In this document: positions 4,071 to 64,000 of the stretch, one piece after another
Layout: each line of letters starts with the position of its first letter
Position numbering within the stretch: position 1 is the stretch's first letter
NCBI GenBank assembly: GCA_023250195.1
Contig: JAHFBF010000001.1
Span: 273,907-337,906, forward strand
Source of the DNA: Candidatus Melainabacteria bacterium
GTDB lineage: Bacteria; Cyanobacteriota; Vampirovibrionia; 2-02-FULL-35-15
Direction of reading: 5' to 3'
Length of the DNA stretch: 64,000 nucleotides
The notes under the pieces: model-generated
What the model was told of the DNA's origin: nothing
The model's database searches: none
The model's input: the letters and a program-made list of their open reading frames with translations, nothing else
Program-made: the position numbers and the translations under genes

Positions 4071-5876
4071 CTAAATCCCACCACTCTTATTCTGTGAATT
4101 TAAAATTACAAACTTTTCAAAATCAACTGGTTGCCCAAATAAAAAGTTTAATCCAAACTGTGTCTGCTGTCTTAGTGCATCCCAATTTACAAGCATTTTA
4201 AAATCTTTTGGACCGACCTTTGCCCTGACTTGTCTTTCTATAACTTCCTGTACTTGTAAATTATATGTTCCATAACCACCAAGTGTAATCCACTCAGAAA
4301 GCTTTACATCACCATCCAGTGAAACACTCTGCATACCCTGAATATATTGATCATAAAATAATGGTGATTTCCCCCTTACATAGCCCTGATCATATCCAAG
4401 TCCAAATGAAACCGGTCCCAGTTTATTATCCAGTACAGGACCACCGGTAAATATTCCCTGAAAGTCACCTGTTGAATAAGCTCTAAAAGCATTTCTCGTC
4501 CTGAATCTTAAAGCAGTATTATATTTTTCTGTTCCCAGTTTAAATACCGGTTTACTGATAAGGGTAATTTGTTCTTCAGCTTTAAAAGCACTGTTTTTAA
4601 AATCTTTTGGATTCCCTGCATCATTTAGAAAGTTTTTATATTTTGTTGGTAAAATTCCCGGGCTGCTTTGAACCCAGGAACTTGCTGATCTGAAGTTAAC
4701 ACCACCTTCAGTAACCTTATTAAGGAAAGAATTTCTCCATTTCCTCCGATCTACAAGCCCAACATTAATCTGTGCAAGAGTACTTCCTAAGAAGCCTTCA
4801 TCAAGATAGTAATTATAAGCTGTACGAAACTCAGTTTTATTCCCAAAAAGTTTTTGTCTGAACTGACCTATAAAACGCTGTTTTAGAGAACCATAGGAAA
4901 GTTGCAAAGTTGTTGTTGGTCCATAAAAACCAAGCATACCTCCATATCCCGGCGAACCACCTGAACCAATTTGTGCAAAAGGAGAAAAAGAGAGAATATG
5001 ATAATCTGTAACATTAAGATTAAAAGCAGGTCCAATTGCAAATCCACCAAGAGCCCCCTGTGTACCAAGGGTAGGCGCAATAAGTGGGGCAGTTCTAACA
5101 TTTGGGTCTGAATTTACTGTCGTAGTAAATTTCGGCTCAGCAGGCAATGAAAAATTTTGAAAGTGTACTCTTCCACCATACACAGTTAAATTATTAACTG
5201 CTTTACTTTGATCATAGACAATTTTTTCTGCAGTTACTCTGTACTTTACATTCTTTGAAACATCATCCCATCCCGGGGCCTTCCTTGCAGCTCTTGAAGC
5301 CTGAAGACTATAAAATGTTCTGGGGTGAATCCTTGCACCAAATCCCTGTGCTACACGAACAGGTTCTTCAAGTTTTAATCTTCCATGCTCATATTCGATC
5401 TGACTATCAGGCAGACTGGCAACTGTTCTTGCTTTGATTACTGCACCTTTGATCAGAGTAAACGGTTTTGTCAACAGATACTTGTTTGAAGTAACATCAA
5501 ATTTAAATGACTCTCCACTTGTAACAATATTATCCCTGGTGATTTTTACATTGCCTTTTGCTTCTACATGCTGATCGCCACCGTAATAAGTAATCTCATC
5601 AGCTTCCAGTTTTGCGTTTTGTTCAACAATGTGAGCTGTTGACATCCCGGAAGTTATATAAACATTTGATTCGTGATCATATTCAACATTGTCACCTTCA
5701 AGCTCTAAATAAACAGCTTTTGCTTTTAGAGGATCGGATGATTGAGAATTAAGGTTTGAGGACTTAATAGTTTTTTTTGACTGTTTGTGAAAAGGATTCT
5801 TTAAAATGCTTGCATTTGCCTGCAAAGCAAATAAAAGACCAACTGTAATAACTAAGATTAAATAATATTTTTTCAT
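4071..5876 (-). CDS. lptD: LptD-like outer-membrane LPS-assembly protein (OstA-like N-domain plus beta-barrel)
   Basis: Signal peptide; N-terminal OstA/LptA-like jellyroll pattern (...AKLEADEITYYGGDQHVEAKGNVKITRDNIVTSGESFKFD...); long C-terminal barrel-like region. Short for LptD at 601 aa, so the call is tentative. Confidence 0.5.
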   Translation of the reverse strand: MKKYYLILVITVGLLFALQANASILKNPFHKQSKKTIKSSNLNSQSSDPLKAKAVYLELEGDNVEYDHESNVYITSGMSTAHIVEQNAKLEADEITYYGGDQHVEAKGNVKITRDNIVTSGESFKFDVTSNKYLLTKPFTLIKGAVIKARTVASLPDSQIEYEHGRLKLEEPVRVAQGFGARIHPRTFYSLQASRAARKAPGWDDVSKNVKYRVTAEKIVYDQSKAVNNLTVYGGRVHFQNFSLPAEPKFTTTVNSDPNVRTAPLIAPTLGTQGALGGFAIGPAFNLNVTDYHILSFSPFAQIGSGGSPGYGGMLGFYGPTTTLQLSYGSLKQRFIGQFRQKLFGNKTEFRTAYNYYLDEGFLGSTLAQINVGLVDRRKWRNSFLNKVTEGGVNFRSASSWVQSSPGILPTKYKNFLNDAGNPKDFKNSAFKAEEQITLISKPVFKLGTEKYNTALRFRTRNAFRAYSTGDFQGIFTGGPVLDNKLGPVSFGLGYDQGYVRGKSPLFYDQYIQGMQSVSLDGDVKLSEWITLGGYGTYNLQVQEVIERQVRAKVGPKDFKMLVNWDALRQQTQFGLNFLFGQPVDFEKFVILNSQNKSGGI

Positions 5877-56921: not shown

Positions 56922-58610
56922 ATGAAAATTGCACTTGCACAAATTAACCCAACAGTTGGAGATTTCGAAAACAACCTGAATAAAATTTTAGAAGCTATTG
57001 ATCACGCAGGTAAAAAAAATGCTGAGCTGGTTATTTTTTCAGAACTTGCTTTATGCGGTTATCCACCAAAAGATTTGTTATTAAAAAACCAATTTATAGA
57101 AGACAGCAAAAAGTATTTAAATAAACTGGCTGACAGCATAAAAGCTGGAATTACTGTTATAGTTGGATTTCCAGAAGAGAATAAAGGCAGTGGCAAACCA
57201 TTATTTGATTCCCTTGCAGTAGTTCAAACAGGCAAAGTCCTATGTACAAGACAAAAAATTCTACTGCCGACTTATGATGTTTTTGATGAGGATAGATACT
57301 TTGAACACGGGGAAATAATTAGTCCTATTGAACTTTTCAATCAGAAAATAGGATTAACTATATGTGAAGATATCTGGCATGATGATTTAAGCTGGACCAA
57401 GCCAAGATACCATCTTGACCCGGTTGCAGAGCTTTCAAAACAAAATATCAATTTAATAATCAATTCTTCTGCTTCACCCTATTTTATGGGAAAACCCACA
57501 TTGAGAGAAGACATCTTAAGAAATTGCGCAAAGAAATATAAATTGCCGATTATTTATGTTAATCAGGTTGGCGGAAATGATGAACTGATCTTTGACGGCA
57601 ATTCATGTGTAATAGATGGAGCTGGAAATGTATGCATGAAATTAAAATCTTTTGAAGAAGATTTACAGATCGTTGAACTTAACGATAACAATCAAATCAT
57701 TGTTAATAGAGACACACCACCGGCACATCTCTACCATGACAACAATGATATCGAGGAATTGCTGCAGGCTATAACCTGCGGGCTTCGTGATTATGTAAAA
57801 AAATGTGATTTTAAAAAAGTTATTGTTGGTTTATCAGGCGGTATTGATTCAGCCCTTGTAGCAGCCATTGCTGCTTATGCCATAGGGAAAGAAAACGTTC
57901 TATGTGTATTTATGCCTTCAAGATACACTTCAGAAGCAAGTTCCAGCGATGCACAAAATTTAGCCTCAAATCTTGGTATTGAATTAAATACTATTTCAAT
58001 AGAAGAACCATTTAAAGTATTTTTACAACTTTTTGAGTCAGCTTTTACGAATAGCAGCACGCCCTGGTATGCCTCTACAACCAAGGAAAATATTCAACCG
58101 CGAATACGTGGTCTAATTCTAATGGCGCTTTCAAATCAAAACAAAGCTCTGGTCCTATCTACAGGAAATAAAAGTGAAATTGGAACTGGATATTGCACAT
58201 TATACGGTGATATGTGCGGGGGTCTGGCAATAATTTCAGATCTTCCAAAAACATTAGTTTATAAACTTGCAGAGTATATAAATAAAAAAGAGGGTAAAGA
58301 ATTAATTCCAAAAAATATTCTTACAAAAGCTCCAACTGCCGAATTAAAATTAAATCAAACCGATCAAGATGTATTGCCTTCCTACGACGTTTTGGATAAA
58401 GTTTTAAACTTTTATGTAGAACAACATGCTCCCTTAAAAGAAATAATAAAGAATGGTATACCTAAAGATACAGTTGAAAAAATTTGTAATATGATTAACT
58501 TAAGTGAGTATAAAAGATATCAGTCAGCGCCTGGATTAAAACTAACAAGCAGATCTTTTGGTTATGGTTGGAGAATGCCAATTGCACAACGATATAAAGA
58601 AACAATCTAA
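56922..58610 (+). CDS. nadE: glutamine-dependent NAD+ synthetase (nitrilase domain plus NAD synthetase domain)
   Basis: N-terminal CN-hydrolase domain (E...K...C triad region ...GLTICED...) and C-terminal SGGIDS PP-loop. ATG at 56922 preferred over the TTG at 56901, which lies inside the palindrome. Confidence 0.85.
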   Translation: MKIALAQINPTVGDFENNLNKILEAIDHAGKKNAELVIFSELALCGYPPKDLLLKNQFIEDSKKYLNKLADSIKAGITVIVGFPEENKGSGKPLFDSLAVVQTGKVLCTRQKILLPTYDVFDEDRYFEHGEIISPIELFNQKIGLTICEDIWHDDLSWTKPRYHLDPVAELSKQNINLIINSSASPYFMGKPTLREDILRNCAKKYKLPIIYVNQVGGNDELIFDGNSCVIDGAGNVCMKLKSFEEDLQIVELNDNNQIIVNRDTPPAHLYHDNNDIEELLQAITCGLRDYVKKCDFKKVIVGLSGGIDSALVAAIAAYAIGKENVLCVFMPSRYTSEASSSDAQNLASNLGIELNTISIEEPFKVFLQLFESAFTNSSTPWYASTTKENIQPRIRGLILMALSNQNKALVLSTGNKSEIGTGYCTLYGDMCGGLAIISDLPKTLVYKLAEYINKKEGKELIPKNILTKAPTAELKLNQTDQDVLPSYDVLDKVLNFYVEQHAPLKEIIKNGIPKDTVEKICNMINLSEYKRYQSAPGLKLTSRSFGYGWRMPIAQRYKETI

Positions 58611-58637
58611 CGTAGGTGCAGGCGACCTGCACCTACG
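58611..58637. repeat. Family-P palindrome cgtaggtgcagg-cga-cctgcacctacg between the nadE stop and the mqnA-like start
   Basis: 12-bp arms, 3-nt loop; near-identical arms to the recF copy. Confidence 0.75.
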
Positions 58638-58638
58638 A

Positions 58639-59445
58639 ATGGGACAGGTAGATTTTATTAACTGTCTGCCTATCAATCTTCCAATTGAACTTGGTGAAGT
58701 AACGGTTAATGCAACCATCATAAATGCTGTACCAAGTGAATTAAATAAAAAGATTTTAAGTGGGGAAATAGATATTGCACCGATATCATCCTACACGTAT
58801 CTTCAAAACAAAGATAAACTGGTCCAAATCTCCGATCTCTGCATAGCATCAAATGGTCCGGCAGACAGTGTTCTATTGTTTTCACAGTTTCCAATAGAAG
58901 AACTTGATGGAGCAAAAATTGCATTATCACCTGCATCTGCTACATCAAACAAATTGTTAAAAATTATATTAAGAGAATTTATAAAAGTTAACGCTGTCTA
59001 TAAAGTAGAGGCGTTACATACAGCACCTCTACAATCAAAAAATTATCCAGCTGCACTTTTTATAGGAGATCATGCACTCTTGGAATTCTCAAATATGCCA
59101 AGAAATCTGTTTATTTATGACCTTGGTTCTCTATGGAAAAAATATACAGGATTACCAATGATTTTCGGAATCTGGGTTGCAAGAAAAGAAATCATAAACC
59201 AATATCCAAACGAAGTTAAAATAATATCAAATCAGCTAGAAAAATCAAAGGAACTTGGCTTAACAACAATGTTTGATAAGGTTATTAAAAAAGCACAGGA
59301 AAAAGTTTTAATTTCAACAGAGTTTTACAGTACTTATTTTCAGCATTTGAGTTACGAATTTAATACTGAATGTAAAAAAGGATTAGAGTTGTTTGAAAAT
59401 TTATCAATTAAAAAACACAATGCAGTCACAAAATCACTCGTATAA
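58639..59445 (+). CDS. mqnA: MqnA/MqnD-family (futalosine pathway) periplasmic-binding-fold protein
   Basis: MGQVDFINCLPINLPI... N-terminus typical of chorismate dehydratase MqnA. The ORF-track start at 58558 overlaps the nadE 3' end. Confidence 0.55.
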   Translation: MGQVDFINCLPINLPIELGEVTVNATIINAVPSELNKKILSGEIDIAPISSYTYLQNKDKLVQISDLCIASNGPADSVLLFSQFPIEELDGAKIALSPASATSNKLLKIILREFIKVNAVYKVEALHTAPLQSKNYPAALFIGDHALLEFSNMPRNLFIYDLGSLWKKYTGLPMIFGIWVARKEIINQYPNEVKIISNQLEKSKELGLTTMFDKVIKKAQEKVLISTEFYSTYFQHLSYEFNTECKKGLELFENLSIKKHNAVTKSLV

Positions 59446-60620: not shown

Positions 60621-61286
60621 TTATAAAAGTACTTTTTCATAAAAGGCGCCATAAGATTTTTCAGGATGTCTGATTTGAATTTCTAAAATCCAATATCCCG
60701 CTTCAGGAGGATAAGGATAAGTATTTAAGCCATCTTTCCATCCTTTATGAGGAAATGATCCGATCAAATGCCCCGCTGGATCTAAATTAAAAATAAAACC
60801 CGCTTCTTTAGTTAGCTTGTAAATATATTTGTATAATTCAATTCCAGTCGAATTATTTTCTCTCCAATAATTACAGGCCATTTTAAAGATGAGTTCACTT
60901 TGAAATTTTAATTCGTCAAATAAACTGTTTTTACCAAAAACCAGTGTCTGACCGGCATCACCTTCAACATCCTCTATTATTGGTCCAATATCTATATAAG
61001 CAATATCTTCTTCCTGTAATATCTTTTCTTCCGCAGATTTATCCTTAAAAGTAAGAATAGTGTTTGTACCAAAGTAAATATAAGGATTATGCCAGTTTCT
61101 CTTTATTCCAAACTTTTCATACAACTCAATGGTTTTTTTCCTGGACTCACTTTCAGATATTCCCGGTTTAATTATTCGTGAGATTCCCTGAAGTAACTCA
61201 CCTGCAATGCTTGCTGCATGTTTCGTTTTTTCAATTATTTGTTTTTGCGTATATTCAGCTACTAGAGGGGATTGCATAGATAACAT
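60621..61286 (-). CDS. M24 (pita-bread) metallopeptidase-like protein, short form
   Basis: ...IAYIDIGPIIEDVEGDAGQTLVFG...AGHLIG...ILEIQI resembles the MetAP/creatinase metal-ligand blocks. Confidence 0.45.
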   Translation of the reverse strand: MLSMQSPLVAEYTQKQIIEKTKHAASIAGELLQGISRIIKPGISESESRKKTIELYEKFGIKRNWHNPYIYFGTNTILTFKDKSAEEKILQEEDIAYIDIGPIIEDVEGDAGQTLVFGKNSLFDELKFQSELIFKMACNYWRENNSTGIELYKYIYKLTKEAGFIFNLDPAGHLIGSFPHKGWKDGLNTYPYPPEAGYWILEIQIRHPEKSYGAFYEKVLL

Positions 61287-61295
61287 TGTACTATT

Positions 61296-63701
61296 TTACC
61301 CACTACACACCAAACAATCTTCTTTATTTTCAAGCGAACAGGCAACTGCTGCCATTTCTTTTTCTTTATCTATTTCTGCATGCTTACCGTTTCCATTACT
61401 GCCATTCTTTGAAACAAGCGGTGTAAGCGGTACTTCAGCCTGTGTTTGGACTGTGAATTTAATAGCATCTACTGCTGCTTTAGTACGCAAATAATACATG
61501 CCGGTCTTTAAGCCTTTTTTCCAGCCATAAAAATGCATTGATGTAAGCTTTGAAAAATCCACATCCTGTAGAAAAAGATTTAATGACTGTGACTGACAGA
61601 TAAATGCTCCTCGATCTGCTGCCATATCAATTAGTGTTCTTTGCTTAATCTCCCAGACAGTTTTATATAAATCCTTTATGTCCTGTGGGATTTCTTCAAT
61701 GTTTTGTATTGAACCATTTTTAGTAATAATCTTATTTTTTAATTCATTATTCCAAAGCCCAAGCTCTACCAAATCTTTCAATAAATACTTATTAACTACA
61801 ATAAACTCCCCTGATAGAACCCTTCTGGTATAAATGTTTGAAGTGTATGGTTCAAAACATTCATTGTTGCCTAATATTTGAGATGTCGATGCAGTAGGCA
61901 TTGGAGCAAGTAATAGTGAGTTCCTGATTCCATTCTTTTTTACTTCTTCTTTTAAAGCATTCCAATCCCATTTATCAGATGGTTTTACATCCCACATATC
62001 AAACTGAAAGATCCCTTTTGAAACGGGAGAGTCTTTAAATGTTTCATATGAACCCTCTTTTTTAGCAAGGTCCATTGAGGCTGTCATAGCACCAAAATAA
62101 ATTGTTTCAAAGATTTCTTTGTTTAATTCCTTCGCTCCTTCCGAGTCAAATGGCATTTTAAGCAAAATGAATGTGTCTGCAAGCCCCTGAACCCCAATTC
62201 CAATCGGACGATGGCGAAAGTTGGATCTTCTTGCTTCTTCTACCGGGTAATAATTTACATCAATAATCTTATTCAGGTTTTTTGTAACAACTTTTGTTAT
62301 TTCAAATAATCTTTGATGATCAAATTTTCCATCAATTATAAATCTCGGCAGTGCAATTGAAGCCAGATTACACACTGCAACTTCATCCGGAGACGTATAC
62401 TCCACTATTTCAGTACAAAGATTTGAACTCTTAATGGTTCCAAGGTTTTGCTGGTTTGATTTTCTATTACATGCATCCTTGTAAAGAATGTACGGAGTAC
62501 CAGTTTCAATCTGAGATTCTAAAATTGCAAACCATAACTCCTGTGCCTTTACAGTTTTTATAGCTTTACCTTCTTTTTCATATTTTTCATACAAAGCTTC
62601 AAACTCATCTCCCCAACTAGTTGTTAGTCCTGGAGCTTCATTTGGACAGAATAATGACCAGCTGCCATTTTCTTCAACCCGCTTCATAAAAAGGTCACAA
62701 ACCCATAGTGCATAAAATAAATCACGTGCTTTAAGTTCTTCTTTTCCATGGTTTTTCTTAAGTTCTAAAAACTCAAAAACATCTGCATGCCAGGGTTCTA
62801 AATAAATCGCAAAAGAACCTTTTCTTTTTCCACCACCCTGATCTACATAACGTGCAGTATCATTAAAAACTCGAAGCATTGGAATAATGCCATTTGAAGT
62901 ACCATTTGTACCTCTTATATATGATCCCGTTGCTCTAATCTCATTAATGCTAAGTCCAATACCACCTGCTGACTGCGAGATTTTTGCACATTGTTTTAAT
63001 GTGTCATAAATGCCTTCTATACTATCCTCTTTCATAGTAAGAAGAAAACAGGAAGAAAGCTGTGCCTTTGGTGTACCAGCATTAAACAGTGTAGGTGTAG
63101 CATGTGTAAACCAGCGCTCTGACATTAAATTATAAGTTTCAATTGCAGAATCAACATCTTCCTTATGGATTCCAACTGCTACCCGCATTAACATGTGCTG
63201 CGGACGTTCAACTACTTCTCCATCAATTTTCAAAAGATAGGATCTTTCAAGTGTTTTAAAACCAAAATAATCATATCCAAAATCCCGATCATAAATAATA
63301 GTAGAATCTAAAAGATCTGCGTTTTTTTGAATAACCTGATAAACATCATTGGCTATAAGTGATGCTTTTTTCCCTGTCCTTGAATCAACATAGTTATATA
63401 AATCAGCCATTGTAGCTGAGAAAGATTTTTTGGTGTTTTTATGCAAATTTGAAACTGCAATTCTTGAAGCAAGACGAGCATAGTCAGGATGTTTTGTAGT
63501 AAGTGAAGCTGCTATTTCTGCCGCAAGATTATCAAGCTCCGGAGTGGTTACCCCATCATAAATCCCTTCAATTACTTTTTTTGCAACATCTGCAGGATCT
63601 ACATGTTTTGGATCAAGCGAGTAACAAAGTTTTTCAATTCTGGCAGTGACCTTATCAAATTTTACAGACTCACGCCTGCCATCTCTTTTTACGACATCCA
63701 T
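61296..63701 (-). CDS. nrdA: ribonucleotide reductase class Ia large subunit, eukaryote-like (ATP-cone plus catalytic barrel)
   Basis: ATP-cone [20 protein letters not shown]; [22 protein letters not shown] active-site block; C-terminal [14 protein letters not shown] redox tail. Confidence 0.9.
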
Positions 63702-63710
63702 AATTATTCT

Positions 63711-64000
63711 CTAGAAATCTTCATTTAAACTAAATTCATATGCTTTTGTTTTATTGCTGTTCATAACACCAGCCTTTTGATATTCACCAACTCTTTTTTC
63801 AAAGAAATTTGTTTTTCCCTGCAATGAAATGAGTTCCATAAAATCAAAAGGATTAGTTTTATGATACAACTTTGGATAACCTAAAGCAACAATCAAACGA
63901 TCAGCTACAAACTCTATATACTGACACATAAGTTTTGAGTTCATACCAATTAAATCTACCGGCAATGCACTTGTAACAAATTCTTTTTCAATTTCTACCG
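63711..64000 (-). CDS. nrdB: ribonucleotide reductase small subunit, C-terminal part (gene continues beyond window end)
   Basis: ...YIEFVADRL...[26 protein letters not shown]...FSLNEDF C-terminal R1-binding tail. Confidence 0.8.

Follow-up and report, generated by a model that had tools for sequence, protein, structure and literature searches.

How did a Melainabacterium, a member of a non-photosynthetic group related to cyanobacteria, come to carry a ribonucleotide reductase (RNR) resembling that of animals and fungi? The question is raised by the end of a 64,000-nt stretch of DNA (hereafter, the window) from a Candidatus Melainabacteria bacterium (assembly GCA_023250195.1, contig JAHFBF010000001.1, positions 273,907 to 337,906; G000:C6:273907-337906 in our numbering), where nrdA and the 3' end of nrdB specify the large and small subunits of a class I enzyme. 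The contig holding the window measures 632 kb, and the genome (2.21 Mb) shows a completeness of 98.9% and a contamination estimate of 0.07%. An original prediction, made from this DNA alone, had regarded both subunits as eukaryote-derived and as a hint of either a eukaryote-associated lifestyle or ancient gene transfer from a host. In the reading developed here, to which we assign a probability of about 85%, the two genes specify a working NrdAe/NrdBe class Ia reductase that the family of this organism acquired from another bacterium, not from a eukaryote, and the pair was ancestral in this family and then lost several times.

NrdA and NrdB are eukaryote-type reductase subunits

The genes in question are given below. 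Locus L083 holds the full nrdB and nrdJ genes of this genome and extends past the end of the window.

61296..63701, minus strand: nrdA, predicted class Ia large subunit (NrdAe, 801 aa); intact open reading frame (ORF) with the Pfam domains ATP-cone, Ribonuc_red_lgN and Ribonuc_red_lgC
63711..64000, minus strand: 3' end of nrdB, predicted small radical-generating subunit (NrdBe); C-terminal 95 aa of a 349-aa ORF
L083:618-1667, minus strand: full nrdB, 349 aa; runs 760 bp past the window, to C6:338666
L083:1713-5045 (C6:338712-342044), minus strand: nrdJ, class II reductase of 1110 aa, directly upstream of nrdB; RNR barrel and TSCPD tail

The row on the minus strand thus reads nrdJ-nrdB-nrdA, with nrdB and nrdA as its final two genes; 45 nt separate nrdJ from nrdB, and 9 nt separate nrdB from nrdA. 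All peptide stretches originally quoted for the two subunits are present in the ORF translations, and phmmer comparison of NrdA and NrdB with the Protein Data Bank (PDB) corroborated that both are eukaryote-type and far from a typical bacterial class Ia enzyme. NrdA matched human RRM1 with 1274.6 bits, its residues 1-800 aligning to 1-791 with inclusion of the C-terminal Cys-x-x-Cys tail, and yeast Rnr1 with 1239 bits, as compared with 575 bits for P. aeruginosa NrdA and 246 bits for E. coli NrdA. Similarly, NrdB scored 508 bits against mouse R2 and 483 bits against yeast Rnr2, the next-ranked beta-subunit entries reaching ~130 bits and E. coli R2 67 bits. Global identity of NrdA was 68-70% to animal proteins, 72% to that of coconut palm and 65% to canonical yeast Rnr1, versus ~40% to the other NrdA type that occurs in the same bacterial class. 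NrdB is 72-80% identical to the NrdB proteins of the bacterial clade described below; eukaryotic R2 proteins were compared by score and not in a tree.

Domain calls (Pfam) and subfamily calls (NCBIfam TIGR and PRK models, with the cut-off of each model) were in line with this picture. NrdA carries an ATP-cone (PF03477) at residues 1-88 together with PF00317 and PF02867, which gives a layout of ATP-cone, all-alpha and ten-stranded barrel domains; the N-terminal ATP-cone is single, and a genome-wide search for this domain finds one in nrdA. The protein reaches 747 bits with TIGR02506 (cut-off 341), and no bacterial-subfamily PRK model of NCBIfam matches it at its cut-off. The catalytic residues C218, N427, C429, E431 and C444 are all present, as are the radical-transfer pair Y736/Y737, the C-terminal redox pair C796/C799 and D57 in the ATP-cone. 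The catalytic residues and both pairs align to their human counterparts and are invariant in a 10-sequence alignment (A1). NrdB, with a predicted ferritin-like fold, matches Pfam Ribonuc_red_sm with 397 bits; its metal ligands D98, E129, H132, E190, E224 and H227 and its radical tyrosine Y136 align to D139, E170, H173, E233, E267, H270 and Y177 of mouse R2, and its tail contains Y327 and the terminal R1-binding heptapeptide FSLNEDF (FTLDADF in mouse R2). A chlamydial class Ic type was ruled out for NrdB, since the radical residue is Tyr and not Phe. From sequence, we infer a class Ia RNR, that is, an oxygen-dependent di-iron tyrosyl-radical enzyme under ATP/dATP control, which very probably works in the same way as the human and yeast enzymes.

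Because the known residues are fully conserved, a course of catalysis can be proposed. NrdB would assemble a di-iron centre and a tyrosyl radical on Y136, and the radical would be passed from Y327 in the NrdB tail through Y736/Y737 of NrdA to C429. This residue would initiate reduction of ribonucleoside diphosphates, with the participation of C218, C444, N427 and E431, and the C796/C799 pair at the NrdA C-terminus would re-reduce the active site. The single N-terminal ATP-cone would confer ATP/dATP on-off control.

NrdA shares with human and yeast reductases (RRM1/RRM2 and Rnr1/Rnr2; PDB 3hnc, 1zyz, 1h0n and 1jk0) the residues of the active site, the specificity loop and the ATP-cone, including D57, and the tail motif F-x-L-x-x-D-F is common to their R2 and the Melainabacterial NrdB. 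In contrast to the human and yeast genes, nrdB and nrdA are intron-less and arranged in an operon, NrdB is devoid of the long N-terminal regulatory extension of eukaryotic R2 (the alignment begins at mouse R2 residue 65), and control would be exerted by bacterial NrdR instead of cell-cycle proteolysis or Sml1-type inhibitors. As for E. coli NrdAB, the textbook bacterial class Ia enzyme (subclass NrdAg), the chemistry, the di-iron tyrosyl radical, the alpha2-beta2 assembly and ATP-cone control are predicted to be the same, but similarity is weak (246 bits for NrdA, 67 bits for NrdB) and the E. coli gene order, nrdA-nrdB, is the reverse.

The closest relatives of NrdA are encoded by bacteria

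Bacterial homologues were retrieved from a search of 5.8 billion proteins and from a scan in which each prokaryote species was represented by one genome. The former listed at least 120 homologues with 77-100% identity to NrdA; all of these listed matches that bear an organism name derive from bacterial metagenome-assembled genomes (MAGs) of Bacteroidota/Bacteroidia, Omnitrophica, Eisenbacteria and Melainabacteria, many of them on contigs of hundreds of kb. The scan revealed 586 NrdA loci, the best 80 of which belong nearly all to Bacteroidota (71-81% identity). Homologues with 75-93% identity, from Bacteroidota, Omnitrophota, Eisenbacteria and Melainabacteria, number in the hundreds. Outside its own family, NrdA has its nearest relatives in Omnitrophota, Eisenbacteria and Bacteroidota, with 75-81% identity versus 65-72% to eukaryotes. 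The gene order is likewise shared: of 16 loci checked from Bacteroidota, Omnitrophota and IMG/VR, 14 have nrdB immediately before nrdA (at the other two, L037 and L066, no nrdB match was found in the locus sequence examined), as do all five loci of the Melainabacteria family, whereas the distant outgroup type is arranged as nrdA-nrdB.

Such enzymes have been described before. Lundin et al. 2010 (BMC Evol Biol 10:383, PMC3019208) attributed the occurrence of subclass NrdAe/NrdBe in bacteria to a eukaryote-to-Bacteroidetes transfer, with strong support in the trees of both subunits for a bacterial group that branches off among eukaryotes, close to oomycetes, Aureococcus and Naegleria; the eukaryotic enzyme was itself held to be ultimately bacterial in origin. 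At that time, the bacterial hosts were 'mainly marine Bacteroidetes' (PMC3019208), and Burnim et al. refer to NrdAe as 'predominantly eukaryotic'. The pair under study belongs to this already known eukaryote-type bacterial clade and is not unusual among bacteria. It has in common with the published group (PMC3019208) the domain layout, one ATP-cone, the catalytic and radical-transfer residues, the Cys-x-x-Cys tail and the nrdB-nrdA order, but differs from its Bacteroidetes members in that the host is a Melainabacterium and the nearest branch is Omnitrophota/Eisenbacteria, and from the group at large in that the operon is attached directly behind a class II nrdJ gene, an arrangement kept across the family.

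Some further sequences came up in these searches. Two IMG/VR contigs filed as viral (L084 and L085) carry a bacterial-style nrdB-nrdA pair; the L085 NrdA (79% identity) pairs with an Eisenbacteria protein, and that of L084 (67%, on a long branch) falls among Flavobacteriales. None of five genes neighbouring nrdB-nrdA on L084 has a PHROG match. These contigs could represent phages that move the operon or mislabelled bacterial DNA. A 3.8-kb contig labelled as a Synechococcus sp. UW140 MAG (L038, CALRTD020000472.1) encodes an NrdA that pairs with Chryseobacterium with a support of 100 in the Shimodaira-Hasegawa-like approximate likelihood-ratio test (SH-aLRT), and is probably a mis-binned Bacteroidota fragment. 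Finally, the 50%-cluster representatives near NrdA are mostly 1000-1900 aa long and match it in 2-5 separate stretches (P0121-P0270), which looks like the presence of one or more inteins or other insertions, common in the probably giant-virus relatives.

NrdA is placed within a bacterial clade

We built two NrdA trees. The first (54 rows; LG+C20+F+G4 by posterior mean site frequency, PMSF) retained long branches and was rooted on the ~40%-identity NrdA type; the second (41 rows) was obtained by full search after removal of long branches, with support expressed as ultrafast bootstrap/SH-aLRT. Eukaryotic R1 was represented by animals, budding yeasts and one plant, without protists; these sequences came from searches with a yeast-like representative (budding yeasts) and a poxvirus gene (animals, plant and poxviruses). 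The 54-row tree recovered a bacterial clade (SH-aLRT 91) made up of Bacteroidota, Omnitrophota/Eisenbacteria, one IMG/VR contig and the Melainabacteria family, with values of 98 for this family and 96 for its union with Omnitrophota/Eisenbacteria. Adjoining this clade was a group that held animals plus fungi (97), the plant and f5, another Melainabacteria family (88). In the 41-row tree, support was 89/93 for the bacterial clade, 100/98 for the family and 94/97 for the family with Omnitrophota/Eisenbacteria. Eukaryotes and eukaryote-type bacteria grouped together with 100/100 versus giant-virus sequences, and a branch of 2.56 changes per site parts the eukaryote-type clade from the ~40%-identity NrdA type.

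The approximately unbiased (AU) test was applied to a constraint that forces the family with eukaryotes to the exclusion of the other bacteria. On the clean 41-row set this costs 52 log-likelihood units and is rejected (p 7e-5); on the 54-row long-branch set it costs 48 units, with a borderline p of 0.052. Tree placement, the AU test and the shared nrdB-nrdA order, the latter as independent support for the bacterial-clade placement, thus argue that the immediate donor to the Melainabacteria family is a bacterium, with the source nearest to Omnitrophota/Eisenbacteria and then to Bacteroidota. The entire bacterial clade and eukaryotic RNR descend from a recent common ancestor, which the literature explains by one old eukaryote-to-bacterium transfer. 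The idea of an ancient gene transfer agrees with what has been published on the clade at large (PMC3019208), but not on this lineage specifically. NrdA falls inside a bacterial clade, an outcome named beforehand as speaking against the original prediction, although its identity to eukaryotes is high (65-72%) and not moderate, as had been specified along with it.

Family f5 (genomes of ~1.8-2.0 Mb) possesses a different eukaryote-type NrdA, 67-69% identical to that of the window and encoded outside it (nrdA at L170-L172, in G021, G031 and G015; nrdB at L192-L193). This protein groups with plant, animals and fungi (95/89 in the 41-row tree) and stays outside the bacterial clade, and a distance of 225 kb separates nrdB from nrdA in G015, a genome assembled as a single contig. 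The f5 enzyme may have been acquired independently and more directly. Judged as one joint proposition, it is unlikely that the bacterial clade is the source or sister of the eukaryotic reductase and that, separately, the f5 NrdAe is an independent, direct eukaryote-to-bacterium acquisition.

The direction of exchange at depth bears on the clade as a whole. A bacterial clade that is sister to, or donor of, the eukaryotic class I reductase, instead of being derived from eukaryotes, would fit the outgroup-rooted trees, in which it branches beside the sampled animals, fungi and plant, as their sister, and does not nest within them. It would also fit the span of the clade over at least four phyla, wider than known in 2010, and the view that the eukaryotic enzyme is ultimately bacterial (PMC3019208). 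The same study, however, reports strong support for an origin within eukaryotes, near protists that are missing from the present trees. Furthermore, the deepest branches of our trees are fast-evolving, probably viral sequences that render the root unreliable, and the short branches and intermixed phyla inside the bacterial clade are easier to reconcile with a recent spread than with a bacterial family of great age. We hold this reverse direction to be quite doubtful.

The nrdAB genes were probably ancestral in the family and repeatedly lost

Within a sample of 12 genomes of the Melainabacteria family (G000, the genome under study, to G011), NrdAe was found in six (G000, G002, G004, G005, G007 and G008; 83-92% NrdA identity) and not in G001, G003, G006, G009, G010 and G011 (79-98% complete). 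A search for NrdB in G001, a same-genus relative of G000, was also negative. The nrdJ gene occurs in 12/12 genomes and sits directly upstream of nrdB in all six nrdAB-positive ones. The G007 NrdA is 100% identical over 797 aa to a protein entered at NCBI under 'MAG: Candidatus Melainabacteria bacterium'. In G000, nrdA and nrdB belong to a variable block of ~5.4 kb (59446 to ~64805 in window numbering), missing from G001, that comprises nrdB, nrdA and the first three genes below; the fourth is its left flank.

60621..61286, minus strand: short M24-peptidase-like gene (221 aa), 9 nt downstream of nrdA; Pfam Peptidase_M24, 46 bits
60117..60617, minus strand: GNAT acetyltransferase gene (166 aa), co-directional; Pfam Acetyltransf_1, 70 bits
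59503..60009, minus strand: 168-aa ORF (ORF call), last gene of the variable block; no Pfam match
58558..59445, plus strand: mqnA (futalosine-pathway menaquinone synthesis); Pfam VitK2_biosynth, 204 bits

In G001, G009 and G010, mqnA directly abuts the end of nrdJ. Homology between G000 and G001 ends near the mqnA 3' end and restarts exactly at the nrdJ stop codon, and inspection of both ends of the 5.4-kb block showed neither flanking repeats nor traces of a mobile element. The GNAT gene adjoins mqnA in G005 and G008 and is absent at this site in G001, G009 and G010. The M24-like gene has no tblastn match in L178 or L179 and was not found next to nrdA in G005 or G008; its ORF is far shorter than typical M24 enzymes.

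An NrdJ tree placed G001, which lacks nrdAB, inside the genus clade of G000 and G002 (100/99), and its condition is therefore one of loss. Presence and absence of nrdAB call for a minimum of four changes on this tree, and the pairs G000+G002 and G005+G008 recur, well supported, in the NrdA and NrdJ trees alike. Since the most divergent family members (~70% NrdJ identity) have nrdAB at the same insertion site, the simplest reading is that the genes were in the family ancestor at their present site and were repeatedly lost thereafter. Composition agrees with this history. The G+C content at third codon positions (GC3) is 0.246 for nrdA and 0.206 for nrdB, within the range of the genome (mean 0.231, standard deviation 0.029), and codon-usage similarity to the genome ranks at the 96th and 32nd percentiles, respectively, of 915 long ORFs. 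These host-like values fit an old acquisition and argue against contamination, as already surmised from codon usage in the original prediction.

These observations also bear on a direct host-to-symbiont transfer, in which the lineage would have taken R1 and R2 from a eukaryote that it lived with and the genes would mark a eukaryote-associated lifestyle. Identity to animal, plant and fungal enzymes is indeed very high, the AU test on the long-branch set does not formally reject grouping of the family with eukaryotes, and the f5 NrdAe, with its eukaryotic affinity and unlinked subunit genes, indicates that such events may occur in the class. Nonetheless, NrdA is nearer to the Omnitrophota, Eisenbacteria and Bacteroidota proteins than to that of any sampled eukaryote, lies in a bacterial nrdB-nrdA operon, and is sister to Omnitrophota/Eisenbacteria (94/97) with the clean-set AU test rejecting the alternative. 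Moreover, the composition of the genes is fully that of their bacterial genome, and nrdAB is ancestral to a whole family with ~30% NrdJ divergence. We consider such a transfer very improbable. Nearest relatives, shared operon, nesting in the bacterial clade and the AU test (p 7e-5; 0.052 with long branches) thus fail to bear out the suggested eukaryote-associated lifestyle, and the RNR genes give no evidence for a host-associated one.

That the genes stem from contaminating DNA through mis-assembly or mis-binning is scarcely credible: MAG contigs can be chimeric, and the Synechococcus-labelled 3.8-kb contig L038 is probably mis-binned, but the present genes are intron-less, genome-typical in GC3 and codon usage and located inside a 632-kb contig of a genome with 0.07% estimated contamination, and the nrdJ-nrdB-nrdA row recurs with the same flanks in five other, independently assembled family genomes, a synteny that argues against a chimeric join. 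Together, these data indicate that nrdAB is old, vertically inherited and not a chimera, contiguity being supported by synteny in the other assemblies.

A class II and a class I reductase probably share one NrdR-controlled transcript

The genome encodes the repressor NrdR (TIGR00244, 203 bits versus a cut-off of 125), and two NrdR-box-like 16-mers lie upstream of nrdJ (L083:5160-5175 and 5496-5511). Two of the three such matches in 12 kb are located in this 547-bp spacer. The distal site is found at a similar position in 10/10 family genomes examined and the proximal one in 9/10; the latter lies just downstream of the best -35/-10 match. The spacers of 45 and 9 nt and the absence of a terminator between nrdJ, nrdB and nrdA suggest that the three genes form one transcript, probably under NrdR. 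As a separate observation, the distal site is nearer to a divergent TPMT-type methyltransferase gene. Control by a B12 riboswitch was dropped as a candidate, an Rfam search of the 12-kb nrd region having detected neither a riboswitch nor any other RNA family.

The row combines a B12-dependent, oxygen-independent class II reductase with an oxygen-dependent, B12-independent class I reductase; a class III NrdD, considered as a third reductase, was not found in the genome. Because CbiC, a marker of corrin-ring synthesis, was not found in this genome and the salvage enzyme CobS was, the organism may depend on salvaged corrinoids for NrdJ. With nrdJ in all 12 family genomes and nrdAB optional, the latter would provide an oxygen-using enzyme that needs no B12 and backs up the core class II reductase when conditions are oxic and B12 is scarce.

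In Streptomyces, NrdR controls a class Ia as well as a class II reductase, the two systems residing in separate operons and the class I genes being controlled by a B12 riboswitch. Genomes of this type therefore resemble ours in having B12-dependent and B12-independent reductases plus NrdR with operator boxes (box-like sites in our case), but our genome has both classes in a single row of genes, where the search for a B12 riboswitch was negative.

The nrdJ gene itself has some peculiarities. Its product is, at 1110 aa, unusually long and has a Cys-rich tail in addition to the TSCPD domain. It is conserved at 70-85% in 12/12 family genomes, yet fails to reach the cut-off of any NrdJ model in NCBIfam (the best, TIGR02504, gives 262 bits versus a cut-off of 400). 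The 45-nt spacer between nrdJ and nrdB (L083:1668-1712) contains a perfect 12-nt palindrome, ATGCCATGGCAT.

Strength of the proposed origin and function

Several points weigh against a working NrdAe/NrdBe reductase of bacterial immediate origin that was ancestral in the family. Support for the bacterial clade is moderate (89/93), and the AU test is borderline when long branches are kept (p 0.052). The eukaryote sample is narrow, and a position nested in eukaryotes is not separable by the trees from one sister to them. The eukaryote-type placement of NrdB follows from scores rather than from a tree with eukaryotic R2. Metal cofactor, activity and oligomeric state of the two proteins are predictions from their sequences, and co-transcription of nrdJ-nrdB-nrdA is deduced from spacing. 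The NrdR-box-like sites deviate from the consensus by 2-4 mismatches each and are ~335 bp apart, which is not the usual close tandem pair, and the B12 rationale derives from three marker searches in one genome. Lastly, support for the assembly at nrdAB comes at the level of synteny.

Implications

These findings do not overturn current understanding; they extend the published inter-domain exchange of an essential enzyme to a further phylum. A bacterial enzyme ~70% identical to human RRM1/RRM2 could also be an easily expressed stand-in for the human drug target. As to the biology of the family, after its entry into bacteria the gene spread among phyla, persisted for long in one Melainabacteria family and was repeatedly lost there, and where it is retained, it stands in a single row of genes, apparently under NrdR control, that pairs a B12-dependent reductase with an oxygen-dependent one.

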